Virus genome (UHGV): UHGV-1770993
Source: a virus
Reading direction: 5' to 3' (one strand)
DNA: 13,591 bases
Both the position numbers and the translations under genes were made by a program. The notes under the pieces were generated by a model. The model made no database searches and was not told the DNA's origin. It saw nothing but the letters and a program-made list of their open reading frames with translations. Positions 1-13,591 of the stretch are shown here, in pieces (the first letter of the stretch is position 1; each line of letters starts with the position of its first letter).

Positions 1-86
1 TGTGAGTCATATTCGCCCTGACTTTCCAGAACCATACGGACTGCCCGTTGACGGACTTCAGGGGAAAAACGAGTATTTTTAGTCAT
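1..86 (-). CDS. IS3-family transposase OrfA, N-terminal fragment (runs off the window)
   Basis: ATG at 86-84 on the minus strand; translation MTKNTRFSPEVRQRAVRMVLESQGEYDSQ matches my recollection of the IS629/IS1203 OrfA N-terminus. Confidence 0.75.
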   Translation of the reverse strand, partial: MTKNTRFSPEVRQRAVRMVLESQGEYDS

Positions 87-140
87 CCTGTTTACCTCTT
101 TCTCAGGAAGTTTAGTCTCCAGGATTCCCGGGGCGGTTCA
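1..140 (-). mobile_element. Left end of an IS3-family insertion sequence (IS629/IS1203-like), reading out of the window
   Basis: Terminal TGAACCGCCCCGGG inverted-repeat end at 140; bases 1-140 are the exact reverse complement of 13452-13591; encodes the OrfA N-terminus MTKNTRFSPEVRQRAVRMVLESQGEYDSQ on the minus strand. Confidence 0.8.
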
Positions 141-171
141 ACCCTTCTTCAGGGCTTAATTTTTAAGAGCG
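141..171 (-). promoter_or_regulatory. nutL: nutL-like N-utilisation site (boxA CGCTCTTA and boxB GCCCTGAAGAAGGGT), directly abutting the IS end
   Basis: Minus strand reads CGCTCTTAAAAATTAAGCCCTGAAGAAGGGT, matching lambda nutL boxA/boxB from memory; the last boxB base is T rather than C at the IS junction. Confidence 0.7.
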
Positions 172-214
172 TCACCTTCATGGTGGTCAGTGCGTCCTGC
201 TGATGGCCTAAAAT

Positions 215-300
215 ATACCTACAGGTAAAACAGCTGTCTATACCTGTAGGTAAATAAAATTGATGTAAGAGTTTACCTGCTTGAATTTTCAGGTAATTAA
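215..300 (-). promoter_or_regulatory. OL/PL-like operator-promoter region with repeated TACC-N4-GGTA repressor sites
   Basis: Palindromic TACCTACAGGTA at 216-227 and TACCTGTAGGTA at 241-252, plus a TTACCTG...CAGGTAA element at 273-297; same motif family as the sites between the repressor and cro. Confidence 0.6.
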
Positions 301-311
301 TTTTTTGGATT

Positions 312-339
312 GATATAAAAAAGCCCGCTTTGCGGGCTG
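312..339 (-). terminator. Rho-independent terminator ending the leftward repressor operon
   Basis: Minus strand reads AGCCCGCAAAGCGGGCTTTTTTATATCA: GC-rich 7-bp stem with 3-nt loop followed by a T-run, just after the stop of the 350-664 gene. Confidence 0.65.
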
Positions 340-349
340 AAAGGAGATG

Positions 350-664
350 TCAGAAGCTATTTGGATTGCTTGGCCATTGCGGCAATTTTGATTCTACTGG
401 GGTGTGTTTGGGTTTGAGTCCGTTTAAGTAGTCAAGACGCTCAATGGCGCATTTATACATAGCAATCTGCTCTGATGACATGTCGTCGTATGACATGCCT
501 TTGAACTTTTTAATTATCGATTCTGCCTCATGTATAAGATGCTTCTTCTTCATGAGTTCAGCTGTATGCTTAGAGCTTACAGGAGATAACTTTGCCCATA
601 TGAAGCAGATGATTACAACAGCGACTACTATGCCGGGTATAAACACTTGCTGCTTTATCCTCAA
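350..664 (-). CDS. Small membrane-anchored protein (104 aa) in the rexAB position downstream of the repressor; function unknown
   Basis: ORF with N-terminal hydrophobic segment VFIPGIVVAVVIICFIWAKL; TTG start overlaps the cI stop (TTGA) with AGGA about 12 nt upstream; followed by the terminator. Confidence 0.55.
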   Translation of the reverse strand: MRIKQQVFIPGIVVAVVIICFIWAKLSPVSSKHTAELMKKKHLIHEAESIIKKFKGMSYDDMSSEQIAMYKCAIERLDYLNGLKPKHTPVESKLPQWPSNPNSF

Positions 665-1347
665 ACTTTTGGCAGATCGTCCTGGTCTACGTACCTGGTG
701 TGTTTCACAATAGCTGAAACAAAATGCATTTTATCAACTTCTTCAACAGGAAGAGTGATTGGGCGGTGATCACTGTTTATGCTACTAAACTGATAATCAC
801 CGTCTCTTGTTTTGTTCATGATCTTTATCATGTTGTGACCGTCTTTGGTCCTTACAAAGACTTCATCACCTGGATGTACTGGCGTATTTGGTTCAATAAC
901 AACATATTCTCCTGACTGAATCCTTGGCCACATGCTGTCACCCTTAACCTTCAGACCGTAAGCATCTTTATCGCCGCTGTAGATGCTTAACCAACCGGAT
1001 CTGAATTCAATCATATCCACTGAGCCATCAACTCCCAAAACGGCTTCACCAATTACCGGAACAAAACCCGCACGAACGTTACCCGCAAACTCAAGATGGT
1101 CTGTAGCTCCAGCTTTACCATCTGCAAGCATGTCCATCCATCCGCGTGGGAGATTAAAAGATTTTTCAATTAGTTCCATCATATCGTCAGCAATGCGTTT
1201 TTTTCCGCTTTTTCCTTCCGGATACAGCATTCTGGAAACGTATGATGGTTCCCTTTCTATTCGACGAGCCAACTCTGAGGCCTTTCCATTACAGAATCGG
1301 TCTCTTATCTCTATCAGCCTTAGTCGTCTTTGTTCGTATTTATCCAT
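661..1347 (-). CDS. cI: cI-type prophage repressor, LexA-like (N-terminal HTH, C-terminal S24 peptidase autocleavage domain)
   Basis: 228-aa ORF divergent from cro; C-terminal GDSM serine motif and downstream lysine typical of S24/LexA-like repressors; flanked by operator arrays on both sides. Confidence 0.85.
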   Translation of the reverse strand: MDKYEQRRLRLIEIRDRFCNGKASELARRIEREPSYVSRMLYPEGKSGKKRIADDMMELIEKSFNLPRGWMDMLADGKAGATDHLEFAGNVRAGFVPVIGEAVLGVDGSVDMIEFRSGWLSIYSGDKDAYGLKVKGDSMWPRIQSGEYVVIEPNTPVHPGDEVFVRTKDGHNMIKIMNKTRDGDYQFSSINSDHRPITLPVEEVDKMHFVSAIVKHTRYVDQDDLPKV

Positions 1348-1364
1348 GATTTAATTCTATCTTT

Positions 1365-1425
1365 GATTACCTGCCGGTAAATAACCTATGGGTATTGATT
1401 TGCTTTTTACCTACAGGTAAACTCA
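1365..1425. promoter_or_regulatory. OR-like operator region with divergent PRM/PR promoters
   Basis: Three TACC-N4-GGTA sites: TTACCTGCCGGTAA 1366-1379, AACCTATGGGTA 1382-1393, TACCTACAGGTA 1408-1419, between the divergent repressor and cro starts. Confidence 0.7.
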
Positions 1426-1455
1426 TCTTATTCAACAACGGGAAGGAGATAGCAA

Positions 1456-1686
1456 ATGGAAGAACTCCGCTTGTATCTGAACTCCCTTTCACTGGAAGAG
1501 CAGAGAGAATTTGCCACCAAGTGCGGAACTTCTATCGGCTATTTGAGGAAAGCACTTAGCCGTAATCATGAATTGGGCGCAGCACTTTGTGTTCTGATTG
1601 AGAAGTTCAGCAATGGTGAAGTGACTCGCAAAGACCTTCATCCGGTTGATTGGGAAAGCATCTGGCCTGAATTAATGGCCGCTTAA
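1456..1686 (+). CDS. cro: Cro-like early regulator (76 aa, HTH)
   Basis: First gene rightward from OR; AGGAG ribosome-binding site at 1444-1448; small HTH-like protein. Confidence 0.7.
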   Translation: MEELRLYLNSLSLEEQREFATKCGTSIGYLRKALSRNHELGAALCVLIEKFSNGEVTRKDLHPVDWESIWPELMAA

Positions 1687-1694
1687 GTTATTAA

Positions 1695-1726
1695 CGCTCT
1701 TACACATCACCGCCCTGAAAAAGGGC
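1695..1726 (+). promoter_or_regulatory. nutR: nutR (boxA CGCTCTTA 1695-1702, boxB GCCCTGAAAAAGGGC 1712-1726)
   Basis: Matches lambda nutR boxA/boxB from memory; boxB is a perfect 5-bp stem hairpin; lies between cro and cII. Confidence 0.8.
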
Positions 1727-1802
1727 ATTACCAGAAACAAATCTCTATGGTTTTGCGTTTCTTTGCGAAGCCAACTCTATCTAATCATTAAGGAAATTAT
1801 CT

Positions 1803-2084
1803 ATGGGTACTATTGCAACTAAAAGCAAGAAAGCGGCTCGCATCGAGTCGGCCTTGCTGAACAAACTGGCACTGATGGGGCAGAAGACATTCGCTCGCGC
1901 GATGGGGGTTCCTGAATACCAGGTAAGCCGATGGAAGAATGGTTTCTTCTCGCAGGTAAGCATGATGCTGGCTGTTCTGGAATACGGAATCGAAGACGAT
2001 GAAATGGCTGAATTGACTAAGCGGCTTGCCGATTACCTGACAAAAGAAAAAGCCCCGAAGAACGGCGAATTCTTCGAGGCCTGA
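1803..2084 (+). CDS. cII: CII transcriptional activator homolog
   Basis: Translation ...[14 protein letters not shown]...SRWK...[17 protein letters not shown] closely resembles lambda CII ([14 protein letters not shown]...SRWK...SMLLAVLEWGVVDDDMA, from memory). Confidence 0.9.
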
Positions 2085-2119
2085 TTGTAGAAAGACTGGA
2101 TCAATCCACAGGAGTCATT

Positions 2120-2266
2120 ATGACAAAACAACTCAGTCCTTACCAGGACAAAATTCACAAACACATACTACGTGATCGCTTCCTGTCCAGCTTCAAGCAG
2201 CCTGGTCGATTCCGGGCTGAGTTGGAAAAAGTGAAGCTGATGCAGAAGGAGAAAGGTCATGAGTAA
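2120..2266 (+). CDS. Small basic protein (48 aa), hypothetical; not in the supplied ORF track
   Basis: ATG 2120 preceded by GGAG at 2111-2114; stop TAA 2264-2266 overlaps the O-like start (ATGAGTAA); [48 protein letters not shown]. Confidence 0.4.
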
Positions 2267-3119
2267 TCTTGCAACCGTAACACATTTAAGGCCTTCACAA
2301 CGGCCTGTGGAGCGTCGTGTGGCAGAAGTTGAAGATGGTTATACCCGTCTTGCAAATGCCCTGTATGAAGAGCTTATCGGCGCAGATTTAACGAAAAATC
2401 AGAGCAAGGTTGCCCACGCCATATGCCGTAAAACATACGGCTACGGTAAAAAGATGGATCGCATCTCTGATAGTCAGTTAGCTCAAATTACCAGGCTGCC
2501 AAGACAGAAGGTAAACAAGGCCAAGAATGAGCTTATCGCGATGAAGGTTATCCTTCGCGAAGGCCAGCAAATCGGGCCTAACAAGAACATCGAGGAATGG
2601 CAAATCGAAGGGTGTCACTACTCTGGTGATAATGTCACTGCATTGGTGACAAAAAGTGTCACCAAAACGGTGACAGCGCTGTCACCAAAACAGGGACACA
2701 CAAAAGAAACTATTACAAAAGAAAAAAGAAATAATAAAAACACTATGTCCGAAAGTGTTCGGACGGAGTGTGAAAAATCACCTGACCGTCACGAAGAAAC
2801 CGACAAGGCATTCGAGGAAATATTCTGGTGTGCAGGCATGCGGAAGGCCGGGAAGAAAAACGCAGCTTCGGCATTCAGAACACAGTTCAGGGAATGGCGT
2901 AAAACTACCAGGGGTACGGCAAGCGAGTTTGCCACGATGCTGGCAGAAGACATCGCATGCAGGAATGGTAAGCAGTTCGGATTCGACAGGTTGTTACCAT
3001 CGAGCTACCTGAACGGTCAGCGCTGGAACGACGAGAAGCCAGAAACTATTCAACCACAATCCAAACCATCATCCGCAATCACCGTATCGAAAACTGGCTA
3101 CGTGTTTTTCGACAGGTGA
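2259..3119 (+). CDS. O: Replication initiator, lambda O-like (N-terminal iteron-binding domain)
   Basis: N-terminal region (...[13 protein letters not shown]...[41 protein letters not shown]...GPNKNIEEW) resembles lambda O from memory; contains internal iterons and an AT-rich tract like ori-lambda. Confidence 0.85.
2620..2745 (+). repeat. Putative replication origin inside the O-like gene: iterons followed by an AT-rich tract
   Basis: Repeated GTGACA/TGTCAC palindromic units (TGTCACTGCATTGGTGACA, GTGTCACCAAAACGGTGACA, GCTGTCACCAAAAC) at about 2627-2691, then the A-rich stretch AAAAGAAACTATTACAAAAGAAAAAAGAAATAATAAAAAC. Confidence 0.65.
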
Positions 3120-3226
3120 ACCATGAAATCAAAAATCAAATCGCTACTGGTCGCTGGTTATAACCACGGCTGGTTAAGTATTTCGTTTGTCGATTTCTGG
3201 TTTAAAAATCTCAATCTGAGGGAATC

Positions 3227-5107
3227 ATGACGCCAAGTGAACTCAGTGACCTGCTTTGGGCGCAGGTTGACAGGGTGGCTCCGCACCTGTTGCCAAACGG
3301 CAAGAAAGAGGGGCATGAGTGGGTTGCCGGTAACGTCAACGGTGACAAGGGAAACAGCCTTAAGGTCAACCTTAGCGGCAAGAAAAAATGGGCTGATTTC
3401 GCTGAGGGAGACGGCGGTGACATGCTTGATTTGTGGATGGCATGTCGTGGAATTAACCTGCATCAGGCTATGCAGGAAGCGAAAGCCTTTCTCGGAATCA
3501 AGGATGACGATCACCATTTCGATGCCAAACGTGAGAAGAAATTCTCCAGACCTGACCGCAAGAAAATCGCCCGCTACGTTACCAGAACAGAATCCCATCT
3601 TGAGTACCTGCAATCGCGTGGCATATCGCCAGAAGTCGTAAAGCGCTACGAGGTTGTCAGCGGCAAGGTGTGGAATGGAGAACGAGAACTTGATGCACTG
3701 GTGCTTCCGTACAAACGCGATGGTGAGTTGTTGCAGGTCAAGCGAATCAGCACTGAGCGACCGGACGGGAAGAAAGTCATTATGGCAGAAGGTGATTGCG
3801 AACCTTGTCTGTTTGGATGGCAGGCTCTGGACGCTGGCGTGAGGGCGGTTGTACTTTGCGAAGGCGAAATTGATTGTATGAGCTATGCGCAATATGGCAT
3901 CTCGGCGTTATCCGTGCCGTTTGGTGGCGGGAAAGGCGCTAAACAGCAGTGGATTGAGTTTGAGTATCACAACCTCGACAGGTTTGAGGAAATATTCATC
4001 TCGATGGACGTTGATGATGTTGGTCGTGAAGCCGCAAGGGAAATCGCAAGCCGACTCGGTGAACATCGTTGCCGTCTTGTTACTCTGCCGTACAAAGACA
4101 TCAACGAATGCCTGATGAACGGTGTTACCGAGGATGAAATCTGGCAGTACATCGGCACGGCATCCTACTTCGATCCTGAAGAACTCTACAGCGCGCGAGA
4201 GTTTTACCAGGACACTATCAACGCTTTCTACGGCAAGCAGCAGTATCTGTTTAATCCACCGTGGGAATCTCTGGCAGATAAATTCCAGTTCCGTGAGGCA
4301 GAGTTGACGCTGGTCAATGGTGTGAACGGTCACGGAAAAACGGAGGTTGTCGGGCATATGGCACTTGAGGCAATGCGTCAGGGTGTGAAGACGTGCATCG
4401 CGTCACTTGAGCTGAAGCCAGGCATTCTCCTTAAGCGACTTACCCGTCAGGCGACGTGCTGCAAGATGCCGCCAGTGCTGGAAATTGACTCTGCATTTAA
4501 ATTTTATGACGAAAGACTTTGGGTGTTTGGCCTGACCGGAACGGCGAAAGCCGACAGGCTGATCGAAATATTCGACTACGCTCGCCGCCGATACGGGATC
4601 CAGTTATTCATCATCGACAGCCTGATGAAATGTGGCATAGGCGACGATGACTATAACGGGCAGAAGGCGTTTGTTGACTCGATTTGCGACTTCAAAAACA
4701 AAACAAACTCCCACGTCATTCTCGTTACTCACTCGCGAAAAGGAGACAGCGAAGAAAAACCAACCGGGAAAATGGACGTAAAAGGCTCTGGAGCGATAAC
4801 AGACCTGACAGACAACCTTTTCATCATCTGGCGTAACAAGGCTCGCGAGAGAGCGTTACAGAGAGTTCAGAGTGGTGAAAAGATGTCAGAGAAGGACGAA
4901 CAGCTACTGGCATCTCCGGCATCTGTTTTGATGCTTGAAAAACAACGTAACGGCGAAGGTTGGGAAGGTGGTGTCCCGTTGTTCCTTGACGAGCAATCGC
5001 ACCAGTTCCTGCAACTTGAATCAGGATCGCCATATAGCTACATCGCCAATATGCCGAAATCGGAATATGACGAGGCGTGGCGACAGGAAAACGTGACGGA
5101 GTATTAA
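3227..5107 (+). CDS. Replicative primase-helicase (Toprim domain fused to a DnaB/RecA-fold SF4 helicase domain)
   Basis: 626-aa ORF; Toprim-like CEGEID and DVDD motifs; Walker A GVNGHGKTE and Walker B LFIIDSLMK in the C-terminal half; occupies the position of lambda P. Confidence 0.8.
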   Translation: MTPSELSDLLWAQVDRVAPHLLPNGKKEGHEWVAGNVNGDKGNSLKVNLSGKKKWADFAEGDGGDMLDLWMACRGINLHQAMQEAKAFLGIKDDDHHFDAKREKKFSRPDRKKIARYVTRTESHLEYLQSRGISPEVVKRYEVVSGKVWNGERELDALVLPYKRDGELLQVKRISTERPDGKKVIMAEGDCEPCLFGWQALDAGVRAVVLCEGEIDCMSYAQYGISALSVPFGGGKGAKQQWIEFEYHNLDRFEEIFISMDVDDVGREAAREIASRLGEHRCRLVTLPYKDINECLMNGVTEDEIWQYIGTASYFDPEELYSAREFYQDTINAFYGKQQYLFNPPWESLADKFQFREAELTLVNGVNGHGKTEVVGHMALEAMRQGVKTCIASLELKPGILLKRLTRQATCCKMPPVLEIDSAFKFYDERLWVFGLTGTAKADRLIEIFDYARRRYGIQLFIIDSLMKCGIGDDDYNGQKAFVDSICDFKNKTNSHVILVTHSRKGDSEEKPTGKMDVKGSGAITDLTDNLFIIWRNKARERALQRVQSGEKMSEKDEQLLASPASVLMLEKQRNGEGWEGGVPLFLDEQSHQFLQLESGSPYSYIANMPKSEYDEAWRQENVTEY

Positions 5108-5191
5108 ATGACCATCTACATCAGTGAGCTTGTAACAGGCCTGCTGGTAATCGCAGGCCTTTTTATTTGGGGGAGAGTAAATCGTGGCTGA
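5108..5191 (+). CDS. Possible 27-aa hydrophobic micropeptide (MTIYISELVTGLLVIAGLFIWGRVNRG)
   Basis: ATG directly abuts the helicase stop (TAAATG); its stop overlaps the GTG start of the next gene; single hydrophobic stretch; too short to be sure. Confidence 0.25.
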   Translation: MTIYISELVTGLLVIAGLFIWGRVNRG

Positions 5192-5390
5192 GTTAATTTT
5201 CTCTGCATTGAGGATTCTCGGTGCTATGTGGATGGTGTCGACGTTCATTGTGGTTGTCGGAAGTTTTGTCCGGTTGGTAGGCGAAGGTAAAGACCTGGTG
5301 GGTGTGCTTTTCGGTAGCATTTTCCTGTGGGTGATTATCGGTGTTATGCCTGTTGTCGTTGCAAAAGTGGCGTGGCGTTTTGTGAGTTGA
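5184..5390 (+). CDS. Small membrane protein with two predicted transmembrane segments (68 aa)
   Basis: GTG start with GGGAGAG ribosome-binding site at 5171-5177; hydrophobic MWMVSTFIVVVGSFV and VLFGSIFLWVIIGVMPVVVA. Confidence 0.5.
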   Translation: MAELIFSALRILGAMWMVSTFIVVVGSFVRLVGEGKDLVGVLFGSIFLWVIIGVMPVVVAKVAWRFVS

Positions 5391-5407
5391 ACTGAGGGTA
5401 AGTACCG

Positions 5408-5764
5408 ATGGACGAATCAAGAAAGAAGTTTGAGGAATACGTTGCCAAAAAATTGAGATTACCATTCGAGATGATAACCGAGGCAAGAAATGGTGATAGG
5501 TACTTCGCATTTTCAAGCATGGATATTCGTCACTCCTTAAATGAGTGGTGGACTTTATGGCAGGCATCGCGAGCAGCTATTGAACTGGATATCGACTGGC
5601 CAGAATCGAATGACGACTTTTGGAAAGATGGTGAAGAAGGTGCTTATGCGATGGGTTATGAGGATGGGCGTGACAAAACGGTAATTGCAGTAATGAAAGC
5701 TATCAGAGCCGCTGGAATTAAAGAGAAGAATTTCGATGAAGCAAACAATATTCCTCCGAACTAA
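5408..5764 (+). CDS. Hypothetical acidic protein (118 aa) in the ren/nin position
   Basis: ORF with GAGGG upstream of the ATG; 29-nt overlap with the ninB start; no family recognised. Confidence 0.55.
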   Translation: MDESRKKFEEYVAKKLRLPFEMITEARNGDRYFAFSSMDIRHSLNEWWTLWQASRAAIELDIDWPESNDDFWKDGEEGAYAMGYEDGRDKTVIAVMKAIRAAGIKEKNFDEANNIPPN

Positions 5765-6146
5765 GCAACAACAGCAAGCCGCAATCAACGCCATCCTCGC
5801 AACACCACTCGATAAAGACAAGCCAGTCACCATCCGCATTACTGACTACAAGCGCAACCTTGACCAGAACGCAAAATTTCACGCGATGCTGGCGGATATC
5901 GCTCGTCAGGTTCAATGGTGCGATAAATGGCTAAAACCAGAACAATGGAAGGTTTTGTTGATCAGCGGTCATGCAGTGGCAACATAACAGGAAGCTGATG
6001 TTTTGCCCGGGCTTGAAGGCGAATACGTCAACATTCGCGAAAGTAGCGCGCAGATGAGTGTGAAGCGTATGGCAAGTCTGATTGAGTACACGACAGCATG
6101 GGCTATTGGTCAGGGTGTCAGATTTACCGACAGGAGGTACGAATGA
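5736..6146 (+). pseudogene. ninB: ninB (Orf-family recombination mediator) interrupted by an in-frame TAA at 5985-5987
   Basis: N-terminal 83 aa resemble lambda NinB (...LDQN.KF.A.L.D..RQV.W...WL); homology continues in the same frame after the TAA ([34 protein letters not shown]...) to the stop at 6144-6146. Confidence 0.7.
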
Positions 6147-6325
6147 GACGACAGCGACGAAGCATCACCGACATCATCTGCGAAAACTGCAAATACCTTC
6201 CAACGAAACGCTCCAGAAATAAACGTAAGCCAATCCCAAAAGAATCTGACGTAAAAACCTTCAATTACACAGCTCACCTGTGGGATATCCGGTGGCTTAG
6301 AGAACGTGCGAGGAAAACAAGGTGA
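6143..6325 (+). CDS. ninE: NinE-like small protein (60 aa)
   Basis: ATG 6143 with GGAGG ribosome-binding site at 6134-6138; [60 protein letters not shown] matches my recollection of lambda NinE. Confidence 0.65.
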
Positions 6326-6492
6326 TTGACCCAAATCGAAGTTACGAACAAGAAAGCGTCGAGCGGGCTTTAACGTGCGCTAACTGCGGTCAGAAGCTGC
6401 ATGTGCTGGAAGTTCACATGTGTGAGCACTGCTGCGCAGAACTGATGAGCGATCCGAATAGCTCAATGTACGAGGAAGAAGACGATGAGTGA
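6322..6492 (+). CDS. ninF: NinF-like small cysteine-rich protein (56 aa); not in the supplied ORF track
   Basis: GTG start overlapping the ninE stop; [56 protein letters not shown] is nearly identical to lambda NinF as I remember it. Confidence 0.65.
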
Positions 6493-6754
6493 TTTCTCTG
6501 AGCTTATTTCCTTCAAAAAAGACAGAGAAGAAATGCGGACTGAATCTGTCTATTACGTTCAACACCGGAATAAACGCTCGGTGCTTGATCAGGAGTTGGT
6601 TATTACCGGAGACCTGGCATTCAGAACATATAAGGCCAGCATGGAAATGAAGGATTTCCCTAAATGTGGTTCTGAAAGAGAAGCCGCGTTAAAGCTGGCT
6701 GAGTGGATGCAGAGAATGGCTGCTGCAATTGAGAATTACTGGAGCGAACCATAA
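6485..6754 (+). CDS. Hypothetical protein (89 aa) in the nin region
   Basis: ORF translationally coupled to its neighbours (start overlaps the ninF stop; its stop overlaps the next start); no family recognised. Confidence 0.5.
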   Translation: MSDFSELISFKKDREEMRTESVYYVQHRNKRSVLDQELVITGDLAFRTYKASMEMKDFPKCGSEREAALKLAEWMQRMAAAIENYWSEP

Positions 6755-7044
6755 TGGCTAACCTACGCAAAGAAGCACGCGGCAGAGAATGCTAGGTACG
6801 TATTTACGGCATATGCAATGGCAATCCTGAAACTACAGTTCTGGCACATTACCGGATGGCTGGAATTTGCGGAACTGGAATGAAGCCTGACGACCTGATC
6901 GGCGCATGGGCTTGTAGTGACTGCCACGCGGAGATCGACCGACGCACCCGGATTCTCGACAACAAAGACGCCAGACTTTACCACCTCGAAGGCGTGATCA
7001 GGACGCAGGCGATACTGCTGAGGGAGGGGAAGATTAAGCCATGA
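6754..7044 (+). pseudogene. ybcO: ybcO-like (DUF1364) gene with an in-frame amber codon at codon 14 (TAG 6793-6795)
   Basis: Reading through the TAG gives MANLRKEARGREC*VRIYGICNGNPETTVLAHYRMAGICGTG...CSDCHAEIDRRT..., collinear with DLP12 YbcO (MADLRKAARGRECQVRIPGVCNGNPETSVLAH..., from memory), where the stop aligns to a Gln. Confidence 0.7.
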
Positions 7045-7403
7045 ACGAATATCAGTTTGTGCTTCCATACCCGCCGTCGGTGAATACCTACTGGCGAAGA
7101 CGGGGAAGCCAATACTACATCAGCGATAAAGGCCAGAAATACCGAAAAGACGTTCAGCAAATCATCCGCCAACTTAAGTTAGACATTTTCACCAAATCAC
7201 GACTCCGCATCAAAGTCATCGTAGACGTTCCGGACTCCCGCCGTCGCGACCTCGACAACATCCTGAAAGGTTTACTCGACTCCCTTATCCACGCCGGATT
7301 TGCGGAAGACGACGAGCAATTCGATGACATTCGCGTAATTCGTGGCGTGAAAGTACCAGGCGGAAGGCTTGGAATAAAAATCACCGAACTGGAGAACGCA
7401 TGA
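7041..7403 (+). CDS. rusA: RusA Holliday-junction resolvase
   Basis: 120-aa ORF with the RusA-like motif PDSRRRDLDNILKGLLDSL and C-terminal GGRLGIKITE; ATGA overlaps with both neighbours. Confidence 0.85.
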   Translation: MNEYQFVLPYPPSVNTYWRRRGSQYYISDKGQKYRKDVQQIIRQLKLDIFTKSRLRIKVIVDVPDSRRRDLDNILKGLLDSLIHAGFAEDDEQFDDIRVIRGVKVPGGRLGIKITELENA

Positions 7404-7588
7404 ACGCCACAATTCAAACGATACCAGAGCTTCTTATCCAGACACGAGGCAATCAGACCGAAGTGGCAAGGATGCTTTCCTGCGCAAGAGGAACAGTGCT
7501 CAAGTACAACCGAGACAGCAAAGGCGAGCGTCACGTAATAGTTAACGGCGTCCTGATGGTCAAACAGGGCAAAAGGGGAAGGCCATGA
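7400..7588 (+). CDS. ninH: NinH-like protein (62 aa)
   Basis: ...TIPELLIQTRGNQTEVARMLSCARGTVLKYNRDSKGERHVIVNGVLMV resembles lambda NinH (...TIPDMLVEAYGNQTEVARRLKCSRGTVRKY..., from memory); its stop overlaps the Q start. Confidence 0.7.
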   Translation: MNATIQTIPELLIQTRGNQTEVARMLSCARGTVLKYNRDSKGERHVIVNGVLMVKQGKRGRP

Positions 7589-8208
7589 GACTCGAAAGCG
7601 CAGCTAAATTTCATTCGCCAAAAAGCCCGATGATGAGCGACTCACCACGGGCTACGGCTTCTGACTCTCTTTCCGGTACTGATGTGATGGCTGCTATGGG
7701 GATGGCGCAATCACAAGCCGGATTCGGAATGGCTGCATTCTGTGGTAAGCACGAACTCAGCCAGAACGACAAACAAAAGGCTATCAACTATCTGATGCAA
7801 TTTGCACACAAGGTATCGGGGAAATACCGTGGCGTTGCAAAGCTTGAAGGAAATACTAAGGCAAAGGTACTGCAAGTGCTCGCAACATTCGCTTATGCGG
7901 ATTATTGCCGTAGTGCCGCGACGCCGGGCGCAAGATGCAGAGATTGCCACGGTACAGGCCGTGCGGTTGATATAGCCAAAACAGAGCAGTGGGGGAGAGT
8001 TGTTGAGAAAGAGTGCGGAAGATGCAAAGGTGTCGGCTATTCAAGAATGCCAGCAAGCGCCGCATATCGCGCTGTAACGATGCTAATCCCAAACCTTACT
8101 CAACCCACCTGGTCACGCACTGTTAAGCCGCTGTATGACGCTCTGGTGGTGCAATGCCACAAAGAAGAGTCAATCGCAGACAACATTTTGAATGCGGTCA
8201 CACGTTAA
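7585..8208 (+). CDS. Q: Late-gene antiterminator Q, lambda type
   Basis: 207-aa translation (MRLESAAKFHSPKSPMMSDSPRATASDSLSG...CRDCHGTGRAVD...) is essentially identical to lambda Q as I remember it; followed by PR'/qut. Confidence 0.92.
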   Translation: MRLESAAKFHSPKSPMMSDSPRATASDSLSGTDVMAAMGMAQSQAGFGMAAFCGKHELSQNDKQKAINYLMQFAHKVSGKYRGVAKLEGNTKAKVLQVLATFAYADYCRSAATPGARCRDCHGTGRAVDIAKTEQWGRVVEKECGRCKGVGYSRMPASAAYRAVTMLIPNLTQPTWSRTVKPLYDALVVQCHKEESIADNILNAVTR

Positions 8209-8250
8209 CAGCATGATTGCCACGGATGGCAACATATTAACGGCATAATA

Positions 8251-8290
8251 TTGACTTTTTGAATAAAGTTGGGTAAATTTGACCCAACGA
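8251..8290 (+). promoter_or_regulatory. Late promoter PR' with overlapping qut site
   Basis: -35 TTGACT at 8251-8256, 17-bp spacer, -10 TAAATT at 8274-8279; the sequence is near-identical to the lambda PR' region from memory. Confidence 0.8.
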
Positions 8291-8480
8291 TGGGTTAATT
8301 CGCTCGTTGTGGTAGTGAGATGAAAAGAGGCGGCGCTTACTACCGATTCCGCCTAGTTGGTCACTTCGACGTATCGTCTGGAACTCCAACCATCGCAGGC
8401 TGAGAGGTCTGCAAAATGCAATCCCGAAACAGTTCGCAGGTAATAGTTAGAGCCTGCACAACGGTTTCGGGATTTTTTAT
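8286..8480 (+). ncRNA. 6S-like PR' leader RNA ending at the tR' intrinsic terminator (hairpin 8422-8471 plus T-run 8473-8479)
   Basis: Region matches the lambda 6S RNA/tR' sequence from memory; CCCGAAAC...GGTTTCGGG stem followed by TTTTTTAT. Confidence 0.7.
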
Positions 8481-8482
8481 TT

Positions 8483-8557
8483 GGGTCAGTCGTATAAAGG
8501 TCATTACGGAAGGCTGTTAACCTTCTTATCGTGGTTCGAGTCCACGCTGTCCCGCCA
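8483..8557 (+). tRNA. tRNA-like gene, anticodon GTT (Asn) by manual folding
   Basis: Cloverleaf by eye: acceptor GGGTCAG/CTGTCCC (6 of 7 pairs), anticodon stem GAAGG/CCTTC with loop CTGTTAA, T-arm CGTGG-TTCGAGT-CCACG, discriminator G and encoded CCA; the D-arm is irregular. Confidence 0.45.
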
Positions 8558-8562
8558 AATAT

Positions 8563-8638
8563 GCTGGTTTAGCTCCAATGGTAGAGCGGTCGCCTTGTAA
8601 GCGAATGGGTAGCGGTTCAAGTCCGTTAACCAGCACCA
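8563..8638 (+). tRNA. tRNA gene, anticodon TGT (Thr) by manual folding, 76 nt with encoded CCA
   Basis: Acceptor GCTGGTT/AACCAGC (7 pairs), D-arm GCTC-CAATGGTA-GAGC, anticodon loop CTTGTAA, T-arm AGCGG-TTCAAGT-CCGTT, discriminator A, CCA. Confidence 0.65.
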
Positions 8639-8880
8639 TAACTGAGCCGTAGCCACTGGCTATCCTGAACTCATCAGTGATAGTTACGCTGCGGCCTTCT
8701 ACACATGACCTTCGTGAAAGCGGGTGGCAAGAGGCTGCGCTAACAACCTCCTGCCGTTTTGCCCGTGCATATCGGTCACGAACAAATCTGATTACTAAAC
8801 ACAGTAGCCTGGATTTGTTCTATCAGTAATAGACCTTATTCCTAATTAAATAGAGCAAATCCCCTTATTGGGGGTAAGAC

Positions 8881-9204
8881 ATGAAGATGCCAGAAAAACA
8901 TGACCTGTTAGCCGCCATTCTCGCGGCAAAGGAACAAGGCATCGGGGCAATCCTTGCGTTTGCAATGGCGTACCTTCGCGGCAGATATAATGGCGGTGCG
9001 TTTACAAAAACAGTAATCGACGCAACGATGTGCGCCATTATCGCCTGGTTCATTCGTGACCTTCTCGACTTCGCCGGACTAAGTAGCAATCTCGCTTATA
9101 TAACGAGCGTGTTCATCGGCTACATCGGTACTGACTCGATTGGTTCGCTTATCAAACGCTTCGCTGCTAAAAAAGCCGGAGTAGAAGATGGTGGAAATCA
9201 ATAA
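8881..9204 (+). CDS. S: Holin/antiholin S (class I holin, dual-start motif MKM)
   Basis: 107-aa translation [41 protein letters not shown]... matches lambda S from memory; dual start codons Met1/Met3 are present. Confidence 0.92.
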
Positions 9205-9664
9205 TCAACGTAAGGCGTTCCTCGATATGCTGGCGTGGTCAGAAGGAACAGATAACGGACGGCAGAAAACCAGAAATCACGGTTATGACGTCATTGTAGG
9301 CGGAGAGCTATTCACTGATTACTCCGATCACCCTCGCAAACTTGTCACGCTAAACCCCAAACTCAAATCAACAGCAGCCGGACGTTACCAGCTTCTTTCC
9401 CGTTGGTGGGATGCCTATCGTAAGCAGCTTGGCCTGAAAGACTTCTCTCCCAAAAGCCAGGACGCTGTTGCGCTGCAGCAGATTAAGGAACGTGGCGCTT
9501 TGCCGATGATTGATCGCGGTGATATCCGTCAGGCTATCGACCGTTGCAGCAACATCTGGGCTTCACTGCCGGGGGCTGGTTATGGTCAGTTCGAGCATAA
9601 GGCTGACAGCCTGATTGCAAAATTCAAAGAGGCTGGCGGAACGGTCAGAGAGATTGAGGTATGA
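9188..9664 (+). CDS. R: Endolysin R (lytic transglycosylase)
   Basis: 158-aa translation [42 protein letters not shown]... is near-identical to lambda R from memory. Confidence 0.92.
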
Positions 9665-10128
9665 GCAGAGTCACCGCGATTATCTCTGCTCTGGTTATCT
9701 GCATCATCGTCTGCCTGTCATGGGCTGTTAATCATTACCGTGATAACGCCATCGCCTACAAAGAACAGCGTGATAAAAAAGTCAGTGAGCTGAAGCAGGC
9801 GGCCGCCACCATTACTGACATGCAGCGACGCCAGCGTGCTGCTGATGCACTCGATGCTAAATACACGAAGGAGTTAGCTGATGCGAAAGCTGAAAATGAT
9901 GCTCTTCGGCGCAAGCTTGATAATGGTGGCAGGGTGCTCGTCAAAGGAAAATGCCCTGTGCCATCCTCAGCCGAAACCTCCGGCGCCTCCGGCATGGGCA
10001 ATGATGCCACCGTCGAACTCTCTCCAGTTGCTGGACGAAACGTTCTCGGTGTCCGGGACGGAATTATCCGCGACCAAACAGCACTGAGAACGCTTCAGGA
10101 ATACATCAGGACGCAATGCCTTCGATGA
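9661..10128 (+). CDS. Rz: Inner-membrane spanin Rz
   Basis: N-terminal [31 protein letters not shown] is identical to lambda Rz from memory; the C-terminal half is diverged but still coiled-coil-like. Confidence 0.85.
9881..10087 (+). CDS. Rz1: Outer-membrane lipoprotein spanin Rz1, embedded in the +1 frame of Rz
   Basis: [21 protein letters not shown]... has a signal peptide with lipobox VAGC and a proline-rich [11 protein letters not shown] segment like lambda Rz1. Confidence 0.75.
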
Positions 10129-10303
10129 TAGCGATAATTTTACTCATCATCCTTCACATCTGGCTCTGTAGACAGGGTGATGATCACTTCTGGAGTGAAT
10201 CCAGATTAAACATCTCATTGCTGATGCTTGATATTGAGCATCTTGCGCGCAGTAAGGGGCTGCGTTGAGATAAGAGCCAGTTCATTACAAATACCAGGAT
10301 TTA

Positions 10304-10328
10304 GCCTCGCATTCGCGGGGCTTTTTAT
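10304..10328 (+). terminator. Rho-independent terminator downstream of the lysis cassette
   Basis: GCCTCGC-ATTC-GCGGGGC hairpin followed by TTTTTAT. Confidence 0.6.
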
Positions 10329-10470
10329 ATCTGAATTTCACAGCGCATCTCACGCGCATATTAACGAGAGCCTTTCAGTAAGCGAGCCTGAGAAATGCCG
10401 TTATAGGTGGCGACCTCTCTCGGGCGGCTTTTCTGTGAGACAGGCTCACTTTCTAAAAGGTAAAGACGCT

Positions 10471-10995
10471 ATGAATAATCATTCAGTTATTCCAGCCTTC
10501 GACTTCCGAGAAATGGTGCAAGCCAAAAACGGAGAGGTCGTTACCACATCCAGAAAAATTGCCAAGTACTTCGGCAAGCGACACGGTGATGTTCTCAGGA
10601 AAATCGAGCAGGTTAAGGCTGATTGCTCGCGTGAGTTTAGCCAACGCAATTTTGCGTCGGCTGATTATATCGATGAGCAGGGCAAGGTTCGCCCGATGTA
10701 CAGCCTGACGAAAGATGGCTGGATCATGGTTGTGATGGGGTTCACCGGGAAAGCTGCTGCGGCAATCAAGGAGAGCTATATCGCAGCATTCAACTGGATG
10801 GCAGAGCAACTGAGCCGCCGCATGGCAATTGGCGAAGAAATGCAGCACCGCTACGCCATCAAAGAAACACGCTCAAAGCTGAAAGGTACGATCGGCAGTC
10901 GGTTAATGAACGAACGGAAGAAAGAGAAGCGTGTCCTGGCTGTCGAGCATGAATACATCTTGCAGGTGACACAGCCTGAACTGCTGATTAATTGA
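10471..10995 (+). CDS. rha: Rha-family phage regulatory protein
   Basis: From ATG 10471: MNNHSVIPAFDFREMVQAKNGEVVTTSRKIAKYFGKRHGDVLRKIEQ... fits the Rha N-terminal domain pattern; the upstream in-frame extension to 10228 spans a terminator hairpin and was rejected. Confidence 0.7.
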   Translation: MNNHSVIPAFDFREMVQAKNGEVVTTSRKIAKYFGKRHGDVLRKIEQVKADCSREFSQRNFASADYIDEQGKVRPMYSLTKDGWIMVVMGFTGKAAAAIKESYIAAFNWMAEQLSRRMAIGEEMQHRYAIKETRSKLKGTIGSRLMNERKKEKRVLAVEHEYILQVTQPELLIN

Positions 10996-11295
10996 AGATG
11001 TCATTACAAAGCCTATCTACGGGTGGGCTTGATAATGAAACCGGAGTTAATTTCTGGTCACTAATTAACGGCAGTACAGCGAAACAACCCAAGCCAGTAA
11101 GTGGGGAAATAACACTGGCAGCCACTGAAAGATGAACCTCCTGCCTTATGGCAAAAAAGATTCTTTGTGGTGGCGGACTGATGGAAAGACATCGGTTATT
11201 GCAGAGACCATTCAATGAGTGGTCTCGACAATGGCTTATACCCTACACGGGATAACTTAACTGATATCCCTTTTAACGGATAAACGGAGCCAACA

Positions 11296-11538
11296 ATGGC
11301 AGAGATTATTCCCATGACTGAAGAACAGAAATTCCAGTTAGAGATTTACAAGCTGGTCATGAACCAGAACGCAGCCGCAGAAGAAGCATTTCAATTCATC
11401 GGCACTGACGAGTTGAAGCTTGAGCTATTCAAAATTCACTTCCAGTCAGGCGGCGCTAATTCAGATATCACTACCCGCACTATCGAAGCGGTGCGTAAAT
11501 CGAAGGAAGCGTTATACCTGTTCACCACCGGAGCATAA
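11296..11538 (+). CDS. Hypothetical protein (80 aa) immediately upstream of the terminase genes
   Basis: ORF with GGAG upstream (11283-11286); stop 3 nt before the terS start; no family recognised. Confidence 0.5.
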   Translation: MAEIIPMTEEQKFQLEIYKLVMNQNAAAEEAFQFIGTDELKLELFKIHFQSGGANSDITTRTIEAVRKSKEALYLFTTGA

Positions 11539-11540
11539 AC

Positions 11541-11981
11541 ATGGCGCGCCCAACAAAGTATCAAGAGGCGTATGCCGAACAGGCACGCAAACTGTGCTTG
11601 CTGGGCTACACCGATGCAGAGCTTGCTGATTTCTTCGAAGTCAGTGAGTCAACTATTAACAAGTGGAAGCTTGATTATCCTGAGTTTTCGGAGTCCATAA
11701 AAAAGGGTAAGGCCGTCGCTGATGCAGAAGTTAGTGACCGTCTTTATCAACGCGCTATGGGCTTCGTGGCTCCAGACATCGATATTCGTGTTATTGAAAA
11801 CAGAATTGTCGAAACTCCGCTTGAGAAGTATTACCCGCCTGATACAACTGCCGCCATCTTCTGGCTTAAGAACCGACAGAAGGATAAATGGCGCGACAAG
11901 GTTGATCACGAGCTAACAGGCAAAGACGGCGGCGCAATTCAGATTGAAACATCACCGATGAGCACTCTGTTCGGAAAATGA
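11541..11981 (+). CDS. terS: Terminase small subunit (HTH-containing)
   Basis: 146-aa ORF immediately upstream of and overlapping (ATGA) the large-terminase gene; N-terminal HTH-like segment LGYTDAELADFFEVSESTINKWK. Confidence 0.75.
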   Translation: MARPTKYQEAYAEQARKLCLLGYTDAELADFFEVSESTINKWKLDYPEFSESIKKGKAVADAEVSDRLYQRAMGFVAPDIDIRVIENRIVETPLEKYYPPDTTAAIFWLKNRQKDKWRDKVDHELTGKDGGAIQIETSPMSTLFGK

Positions 11982-13393
11982 CCTCGATTAATCCTATCTT
12001 TGAACCGTTCATTGAGGCGCATCGCTACAAAGTCGCCAAAGGCGGTCGAGGTAGCGGTAAATCATGGGCAATTGCGAGGCTGCTTGTTGAAGCGGCGCGT
12101 CGTCAGCCAGTGCGTATTCTTTGCGCTCGTGAACTGCAAAACAGTATCAGCGATTCGGTAATCCGGCTGCTTGAAGACACCATCGAGCGTGAAGGATATT
12201 CGGCTGAGTTTGAAATTCAGCGTTCAATGATTCGTCATCTCGGAACGAATGCTGAATTCATGTTCTACGGCATCAAAAACAACCCGACGAAGATTAAATC
12301 GCTCGAAGGTATTGATATCTGCTGGGTGGAAGAAGCGGAAGCGGTAACGAAGGAATCATGGGATATCCTGATACCAACCATCCGTAAGCCGTTCTCTGAA
12401 ATATGGGTGAGCTTTAACCCGAAGAACATACTCGACGATACCTATCAGCGATTCGTCGTAAATCCTCCTGATGATATTTGCCTGTTGACGGTGAACTACA
12501 CCGACAACCCGCACTTTCCTGAAGTTCTCCGTCTGGAGATGGAAGAGTGTAAACGCAGAAATCCGACACTGTATCGTCACATCTGGCTTGGTGAGCCAGT
12601 GAGCGCAAGTGATATGGCAATTATCAAACGTGAATGGCTTGAAGCCGCAACCGATGCGCACAAGAAACTCGGATGGAAAGCGAAAGGCGCTGTTGTCTCT
12701 GCGCATGACCCATCAGATACAGGGCCAGATGCTAAAGGTTATGCATCGCGTCACGGTTCGGTAGTTAAGCGCATTGCCGAAGGTCTGCTGATGGACATCA
12801 ACGAGGGTGCTGACTGGGCTACTTCGCTGGCGATTGAAGACGGCGCTGACCATTACCTGTGGGATGGTGATGGTGTTGGTGCCGGGCTACGCAGACAGAC
12901 AACGGAAGCGTTTTCCGGCAAGAAAATCACCGCCACGATGTTCAAGGGCAGCGAATCGCCATTCGATGAAGATGCACCGTATCAAGCCGGAGCATGGGCT
13001 GATGAAGTCGTACAGGGTGACAACGTTCGCACTATTGGCGATGTGTTCCGCAATAAGCGAGCACAATTCTATTACGCGCTGGCTGACAGGCTGTATCTGA
13101 CATATCGGGCGGTTGTCTACGGTGAGTATGCAGACCCCGACGACATGCTGAGCTTCGACAAAGAAGCGATAGGCGAGAAGATGCTGGAGAAGCTGTTTGC
13201 AGAATTGACGCAGATTCAGCGCAAATTCAATAACAACGGGAAGCTGGAGCTAATGACTAAGGTCGAAATGAAGCAGAAGCTCGGTATTCCATCTCCTAAC
13301 CTGGCTGATGCGCTGATGATGTGTATGCATTGCCCGGAGTCGGCTGCGCAACCCGACTATTCCAGTTACTCAATTCCTTGTGGTGTAGGTTGA
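11978..13393 (+). CDS. terL: Terminase large subunit, PBSX-family (pac-type) ATPase/nuclease
   Basis: 471-aa ORF with Walker A KGGRGSGKSWA, Walker B-like ICWVEEAEA, and C-terminal acidic nuclease-like residues. Confidence 0.88.
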   Translation: MTSINPIFEPFIEAHRYKVAKGGRGSGKSWAIARLLVEAARRQPVRILCARELQNSISDSVIRLLEDTIEREGYSAEFEIQRSMIRHLGTNAEFMFYGIKNNPTKIKSLEGIDICWVEEAEAVTKESWDILIPTIRKPFSEIWVSFNPKNILDDTYQRFVVNPPDDICLLTVNYTDNPHFPEVLRLEMEECKRRNPTLYRHIWLGEPVSASDMAIIKREWLEAATDAHKKLGWKAKGAVVSAHDPSDTGPDAKGYASRHGSVVKRIAEGLLMDINEGADWATSLAIEDGADHYLWDGDGVGAGLRRQTTEAFSGKKITATMFKGSESPFDEDAPYQAGAWADEVVQGDNVRTIGDVFRNKRAQFYYALADRLYLTYRAVVYGEYADPDDMLSFDKEAIGEKMLEKLFAELTQIQRKFNNNGKLELMTKVEMKQKLGIPSPNLADALMMCMHCPESAAQPDYSSYSIPCGVG

Positions 13394-13395
13394 TA

Positions 13396-13451
13396 TGGCA
13401 GAAAAAAAGATGACTGACTGGCATCGCAAGGTGCTGTGCAACTTTGATAAT
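13396..13451 (+). pseudogene. First 18 codons of the gene after terL (presumably portal), truncated by IS insertion
   Basis: ATG 13396 three nt after the terL stop, MAEKKMTDWHRKVLCNFDN, then the IS end begins at 13452. Confidence 0.35.
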
Positions 13452-13591
13452 TGAACCGCCCCGGGAATCCTGGAGACTAAACTTCCTGAGAAAGAGGTAA
13501 ACAGGATGACTAAAAATACTCGTTTTTCCCCTGAAGTCCGTCAACGGGCAGTCCGTATGGTTCTGGAAAGTCAGGGCGAATATGACTCACA
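13452..13591 (+). mobile_element. Left end of an IS3-family insertion sequence (IS629/IS1203-like), reading out of the window
   Basis: TGAACCGCCCCGGGAATCCTGGAGACTAAAC... terminal repeat; exact reverse complement of 1-140; OrfA start at 13506. Confidence 0.8.
13506..13591 (+). CDS. IS3-family transposase OrfA, N-terminal fragment (runs off the window)
   Basis: GGT/AGG ribosome-binding site then ATG 13506; MTKNTRFSPEVRQRAVRMVLESQGEYDSQ. Confidence 0.75.
   Translation, partial: MTKNTRFSPEVRQRAVRMVLESQGEYDS

Follow-up and report, generated by a model that had tools for sequence, protein, structure and literature searches.

Two inverted IS629 left ends bound a 13.3-kb segment of a P22-like Escherichia coli prophage in a k = 141 contig

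Introduction

The insertion sequence IS629 has been reported to favour the prophages of Escherichia coli O157:H7 as a location, with duplications of 3–4 bp and with many strain-specific sites (PMC3271280); its insertions in the lambdoid prophages of O157:H7 have already been catalogued (PMC3271280; Ooka et al. 2009 as cited there). Pairs of inverted copies of one IS around a cargo are also found in composite transposons of the Tn10/Tn5 type, and chromosomal inversions mediated by IS elements or prophages have been described in E. coli O157 (bioRxiv 10.1101/2020.12.02.407981). On the computational side, de Bruijn graph assembly yields contigs that end in multi-copy repeats, as in the case of MEGAHIT unitigs, which overlap their neighbours by k.

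The window studied here, a stretch of 13,591 nt entered as UHGV virus genome UHGV-1770993, resembles each of these systems in part. It shares with the IS629 insertions of O157:H7 an identical left end (140 nt), a prophage location and precise junctions at the TG terminus; however, the host element is a P22-like prophage whose other observed copies, in E. coli isolates of human bloodstream, clinical and UPEC-named origin, are uninterrupted, and the two positions occupied here (3' of the nutL boxB and at portal codon 19) were found occupied in none of 5,426 complete genomes. Its geometry, two inverted copies of one IS around a cargo, is that of Tn10/Tn5-type transposons, whereas the IS629–segment–IS629 arrangement is seen at no second location and its cargo is contiguous prophage DNA that occupies its native position in relatives; a composite transposon would be expected at more than one location, flanked by one duplication, whereas the junctions are absent from 5,426 complete E. 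coli genomes and from viral, JGI metagenome and GTDB collections, and nothing indicates that the unit moves. With the O157 inversions it has in common inverted homologous repeats in a prophage region, which are substrates for RecA-dependent inversion, but here the repeats would measure 1.3 kb and the segment 13.3 kb, and no inversion is observed. Finally, it displays the terminal identity of length k, located within a multi-copy repeat, that typifies repeat-bounded de Bruijn contigs, the one unusual point being that a single repeat is entered from its left end at either side of the contig, whose terminal k-mer is thus met again in inverted form. The window is very likely a k = 141 contig that IS629 bounds on both sides, with left-end junctions in inverted orientation around a prophage segment.

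Results

The matching inverted ends of the window are IS629 left ends

Positions 1–141 are the exact reverse complement of positions 13451–13591 (141 nt, 100% complementary, by both repeat search and direct reading); because the second-best inverted pair that the repeat search detects in the window extends over 29 nt at 72%, a chance origin of this match is ruled out. The arms, which the preliminary description had correctly recognized as the pair 1–140 and 13452–13591, are thus one base longer than proposed. In each of them, 140 nt belong to the left end of IS629 and the 141st base (141/13451) belongs to the phage flank, as indicated by a match to uninterrupted prophages that spans 141..13451; this base is alike at both junctions by coincidence, which lengthens the inverted identity to 141 nt.

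At both ends of the window, arm nucleotides 1–140 are identical (140/140) to positions 1–140 of a 1310-bp IS629 copy in AP019704.1 (locus extract 2002–3311), used here as reference. Queried against a plasmid collection, the arm matched 2,923 plasmid records, 774 of them at an identity of at least 99%, and the best match, 100% identical, lies beneath genes annotated "IS629 transposase OrfA/OrfB" (AP019704.1). The reference copy starts with TGAACCGCCCCGGGAATCCTGGAGA and ends with ...CCGGGGCGGTTCA (...GGTTCA), so that its termini are TG...CA; over the first 25 positions, its IRL and IRR agree at 22, including an unbroken run across positions 1–13. Its orfA carries an HTH_Tnp_1 domain (PF01527, E=6e-13) and its orfB an rve integrase core (PF00665, E=1e-24), which establishes an IS3-family layout; this layout was seen in the reference copy, the window itself carrying just 28 orfA codons per end.

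The arms of the window terminate in the IRL TGAACCGCCCCGGGAATCCTGGAGA and thereby display the 5'-TG...CA-3' end feature of the IS3 family. The orfA ATG lies at IS position 55, following a 54-nt leader, and orfA accounts for 86 nt of each arm, or 28 codons and two further nucleotides; accordingly, the gene calls of the source assembly include 28-aa cut orfA products at 3..86 (−) and 13506..13589 (+). An IS3-family terminal repeat with the first 28 orfA codons reading outward had been proposed for each end, and this assignment holds, with the 140/140 nt identity specifying IS629. Likewise, the existence of two distinct left-end junctions upholds the view that inverted IS left ends, at least two in number, bracket a 13.3-kb prophage segment (Table 1).

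In both IS629 ends, orfA is co-oriented with the adjoining phage transcription, which is leftward from PL on one side and rightward in the late operon on the other; read-through from phage promoters would run into each IS629 in the sense direction.

Table 1. Coordinates of the main features of the window
Feature	Position	Strand	Details
IS629 left end	1..140	−	IRL 140..116, leader, orfA ATG 86..84; 28 codons + 2 nt, running off the contig end
nutL	141..171	−	boxB 155..141 (GCCCTGAAGAAGGGT), spacer, boxA 171..164 (CGCTCTTA); from alignment with lambda
PL promoter / OL operator region	200..290	−	TACCTACAGGTA-type palindromes; putative function, assigned by position in the alignment to lambda oL1-oL3
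Prophage repressor, S24 peptidase family	661..1347	−	PF00717, E=1.4e-17; identical gene annotated S24 family peptidase in RefSeq
ninB	5736..5987	+	truncated at codon 84 by 5985 A>T (AAA>TAA)
Terminase large subunit	11978..13393	+	intact, PF04466; no other complete phage gene lies between it and the right IS
Portal start, P22-type	13395..13454	+	19 codons (13395-13451), then in-frame TGA of the IS629 terminus (13452-13454)
IS629 left end	13452..13591	+	IRL 13452-13476, orfA ATG 13506; 28 codons + 2 nt, running off the contig end

The segment is contiguous in uninterrupted prophages

In 17 complete E. coli genomes, which derive from human bloodstream, clinical and UPEC-named isolates, the region enclosed by the two IS629 ends (141–13451; 13,311 nt) has an ungapped match to a P22-like prophage free of interruptions. 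Over the 13,311 nt, there is a single mismatch to NZ_CP147567 (13,310/13,311), in which the segment starts 198 bp ahead of gene N and reaches portal codon 19, and the prophage continues normally on both sides; in the closest complete genomes, including NZ_CP147567, no IS lies within 6 kb on either side of the segment. The sequence between the IS629 ends is the 13.3-kb immunity-replication-nin-Q-lysis-terminase block of an E. coli prophage. Its assignment to a P22-like lambdoid prophage is based on the RefSeq annotation and Pfam domains of the uninterrupted prophage, on the genes of the window and on the alignment of nutL with lambda, the defining traits being P22-type portal, coat and injection proteins past the terminase together with lambda-type PL-nutL-N, cI/cro/cII, O, nin, Q and lysis modules.

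To look for the junctions elsewhere, 110-nt probes were centred on each IS/phage boundary, half consisting of IS end and half of phage flank. They matched 3,477 and 3,353 of 5,426 complete E. coli genomes, in none of which either junction was covered. A degenerate pattern for both junctions had no match in IMG/VR, JGI metagenome contigs or GTDB representative genomes, and neither of the junction-spanning ORFs (82 aa and 51 aa) is on record. The terminase was found in 5,325 blocks and, among the matches listed, occurs in long intact prophages only.

The extent of the terminal identity is set by the assembler

The window corresponds to an entire ENA contig, ERZ27234353:k141_588 (13591 nt), to which it was matched via its distinctive truncated 83-aa NinB, and the identical contig was recovered in 3 samples; a literature search for the assembly and run accessions gave no hits. 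The "k141_" prefix is how MEGAHIT names contigs when its final k is 141, and the use of MEGAHIT with --k-max 141 is described in 71 papers. A k = 141 de Bruijn unitig was simulated after placing two inverted IS629 copies at the observed sites of the intact prophage; it measured 13,591 nt, had 141-nt inverted ends and, once the single-nucleotide difference was added, equalled the window base for base; the simulated arms were 31, 99, 127 and 141 nt long for k = 31, 99, 127 and 141, respectively. Since the arm length equals k and the simulated arms track k, the extent of 141 nt is a property of the assembler and is uninformative on the length of the IS copies. A contig boundary at a repeat, which had been mentioned as an alternative to two IS copies, is therefore a correct description, given that the window is the whole of k141_588 and its arm length is k, and it is compatible with the presence of two IS. 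A genuine 140-bp IS remnant is unsupported because, in simulation, an identical contig results whenever the IS left end measures 141 nt or more.

In the sequence of events that we propose, the P22-like prophage of an E. coli strain would have gained two inverted IS629 copies, both with their left ends (IRL/orfA side) facing the 13.3-kb segment. The assembler, unable to pass the repeated IS, would then have stopped at the first k-mer common to both junctions, which would leave exactly k = 141 nt identical at the two ends.

The arrangement could also be an assembly artefact, with one IS629 located beside the segment, or junctions that derive from different strains, and an end identity that reflects graph collapse or chimerism. 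The source is a metagenome assembly and IS629 is a widespread repeat (with probe matches in 3,477 and 3,353 of the 5,426 genomes), yet one IS has a single left end, whereas here two different phage sequences abut the IRL; moreover, neither the single-IS nor the mixed-strain simulations gave the contig, which was found in identical form in 3 samples. Such an origin is thus scarcely credible. In particular, a single IS combined with repeat collapse, which the preliminary description had singled out as the scenario that would overturn its own interpretation, is incompatible with the two phage flanks, and simulation agrees in that a single IS produced no contig of the window's kind. A strain mixture was rejected by graph logic as well as by simulation: with a mix of singly inserted strains, or with a co-existing intact prophage, the unitig stops at 141 and 13451. 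The exclusion of mixtures and of a single IS implies that, within the sample, practically all copies of the segment lie between two IS629 left ends, with the proviso that MEGAHIT prunes low-depth edges, so that a minor subpopulation with an intact junction may go unseen.

IS629 abuts the nutL boxB

At the left junction, IS629 abuts the 3' end of the boxB hairpin and shares the orientation of PL transcription; the insertion point falls in the interval that has PL/nutL on one side and gene N on the other. Alignment with lambda (positions 35439-35659, where nutL is annotated at 35518-35534) indicates that, from about the transcript start through boxB, the PL leader is identical to that of lambda, bar the last base of boxB. 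This base is a T where lambda has a C, giving a G-U closing pair, and the T is also present in the intact prophage; nutL is hence essentially identical to that of lambda despite a different immunity region and P22-type structural genes. An Rfam scan of the window returned two tRNAs only, with no curated family covering nutL.

The operator-like repeat of the 200..290 region recurs at 1406-1428. Palindromic TACCTACAGGTA(A) motifs are found at 215-255 and 1400-1430, flanking the repressor gene at the positions of lambda OL and OR, and are probably the operators of this immunity type. Leftward transcripts from PL are predicted to cross nutL and to enter the left IS629 in sense orientation. As the element lies 3' of boxB, PL and nutL would be separated from N, on which the left IS629 is expected to be polar.

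From the 3–4 bp duplications reported for IS629 (PMC3271280), the predicted target-site duplication on this side is ACC(C), 141-143(144). On the + strand of the window, a simple insertion would produce the outer junction ...CTTTGAATGCTACC(C)|TGAACCGCCCCGGTTTTCC, that is, CTTTGAATGCTACC(C)TGAACCGCCCCGGTTTTCCTGGAGAG.

IS629 interrupts the portal gene

The portal CDS of the intact prophage begins at window position 13395 (19255 in the prophage locus extract), and its match stops at 13451, where the IS629 terminus takes over. The duplication predicted for this side is (T)AAT, ending at 13451, and a simple insertion would give the outer junction ...AAAACCGGGGCGGTTCA|(T)AATGCCTGGTCAGC on the + strand, that is, CCAGGAAAACCGGGGCGGTTCA(T)AATGCCTGGTCAGCAACG. 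Comparison of the two IS629 target sites by eye revealed no evident common motif.

The flanking phage genes and the orientation of the segment

Loss of the neighbouring genes (N and portal) by way of the IS copies had been suggested for this locus. This is not supported, for the contig simply ends, the first 19 codons of portal are present in the window (Table 1) and the same contig is simulated with flanks that are present, deleted or rearranged. Specifically, it was obtained with a collinear segment, with an inverted segment, with unrelated outer DNA and with IS remnants of just 400 nt. Because N and the remainder of portal are absent only as a result of the contig ending k nt into the repeat, gene loss is not demonstrated.

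We regard two simple IS629 insertions, with the outer halves of the phage still in place, as the fairly likely history of the locus. Each junction would reflect a simple copy-out/paste-in event with a 3–4 bp duplication, and beyond the IS copies the prophage would still continue, into its N side on the left and its portal side on the right.

It is unlikely that the segment is instead bounded by IS629 with the outer parts of the prophage gone or elsewhere, as in the suggested loss of neighbouring genes; deletions next to an IS, exchange with IS629 copies at other sites, or the transfer of IS629–segment–IS629 to a new site as a composite unit could have led there. Simulation with unrelated outer DNA does give an identical contig, and just 21 of 47 O157 IS629 sites kept matching duplications (PMC3271280), which implies that rearranged IS629 contexts are common. 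Nevertheless, there is no positive evidence for such events at this locus, the absence of N and portal being explained by the contig end; each junction is an exact IS terminus, located where the intact prophage is continuous; the 13,310/13,311 identity to intact prophages suggests that the events are recent; and the junctions were found at no other location, whether in complete E. coli genomes or in the viral, JGI metagenome and GTDB collections.

Even less probable is a third history, in which the same two insertions took place and the 13.3-kb segment now is inverted, or flips, via the inverted 1.3-kb IS629 copies. The geometry permits this and the simulated inverted case gives an identical contig; however, an inversion is invisible in short reads, neither orientation is favoured by the evidence, and a 1.3-kb repeat gives only low-frequency RecA-dependent inversion. 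On the two insertions with the outer halves in place, homologous recombination between the copies could invert the segment but not delete it. Of the two outcomes that had been envisaged for such recombination, inversion therefore stands, the copies being inverted, and deletion falls, since it needs direct repeats.

Disruptive changes and their significance

Relative to intact prophages, the window shows three changes, each of which is disruptive: one IS629 has entered the nutL–N interval, another the portal gene, and ninB has gained a premature stop codon. The prophage would be grounded by the separation of PL/nutL from N through the left IS, by a portal cut at codon 19 and by the ninB lesion; judging from lambda and P22 biology, both insertions together with the nonsense mutation should leave it unable to make phage. 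A P22-like prophage of a kind often met in clinical E. coli isolates from humans has thus probably been immobilised by these changes in combination, as an ordinary case of the known decay of prophages through IS insertion. That selection should have favoured a grounded prophage keeping its immunity, replication and lysis block as an IS629-bounded, invertible or mobilisable cassette, with derepression driving the IS629 transposase, is very improbable.

What the locus adds is a record of two previously unlisted IS629 insertion sites and of a ninB nonsense allele, as well as a caution for the interpretation of assemblies: identical inverted contig ends of length k mark the boundary of a repeat, not a short biological repeat, and genes missing past such k-length repeat ends of short-read contigs are no evidence of deletion.

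The ninB allele and other genes of the segment

The 5985 A>T substitution is the sole difference from NZ_CP147567 over 13,311 nt, and it shortens the NinB product, which in the intact prophage has a full length of 136 aa, to 83 aa. The TAA allele occurs in no complete E. coli genome (best match 100/101). Three further public assemblies contain it on prophage contigs that are nearly identical to the window (ERZ1743281 NODE_164, ERZ857894 NODE_577 and SRR3132450_572) but do not extend to the IS junctions.

Directly downstream of the repressor gene, at the position of lambda rex or P22 sieB, lies a 104-aa ORF (350-664, −) that has no Pfam match, is unannotated in RefSeq and was uncalled in the source assembly; its N-terminus looks hydrophobic. 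Genes for tRNA-Asn(GTT) and tRNA-Thr(TGT) are located at 8483-8638, between the Q antiterminator and the holin gene. The replication module combines a lambda O-like initiator (2259-3119) with a 626-aa fusion of a Toprim primase and a DnaB-like helicase (3227-5107), in place of which two related prophages have a lambda P or DnaB loader-helicase arrangement.
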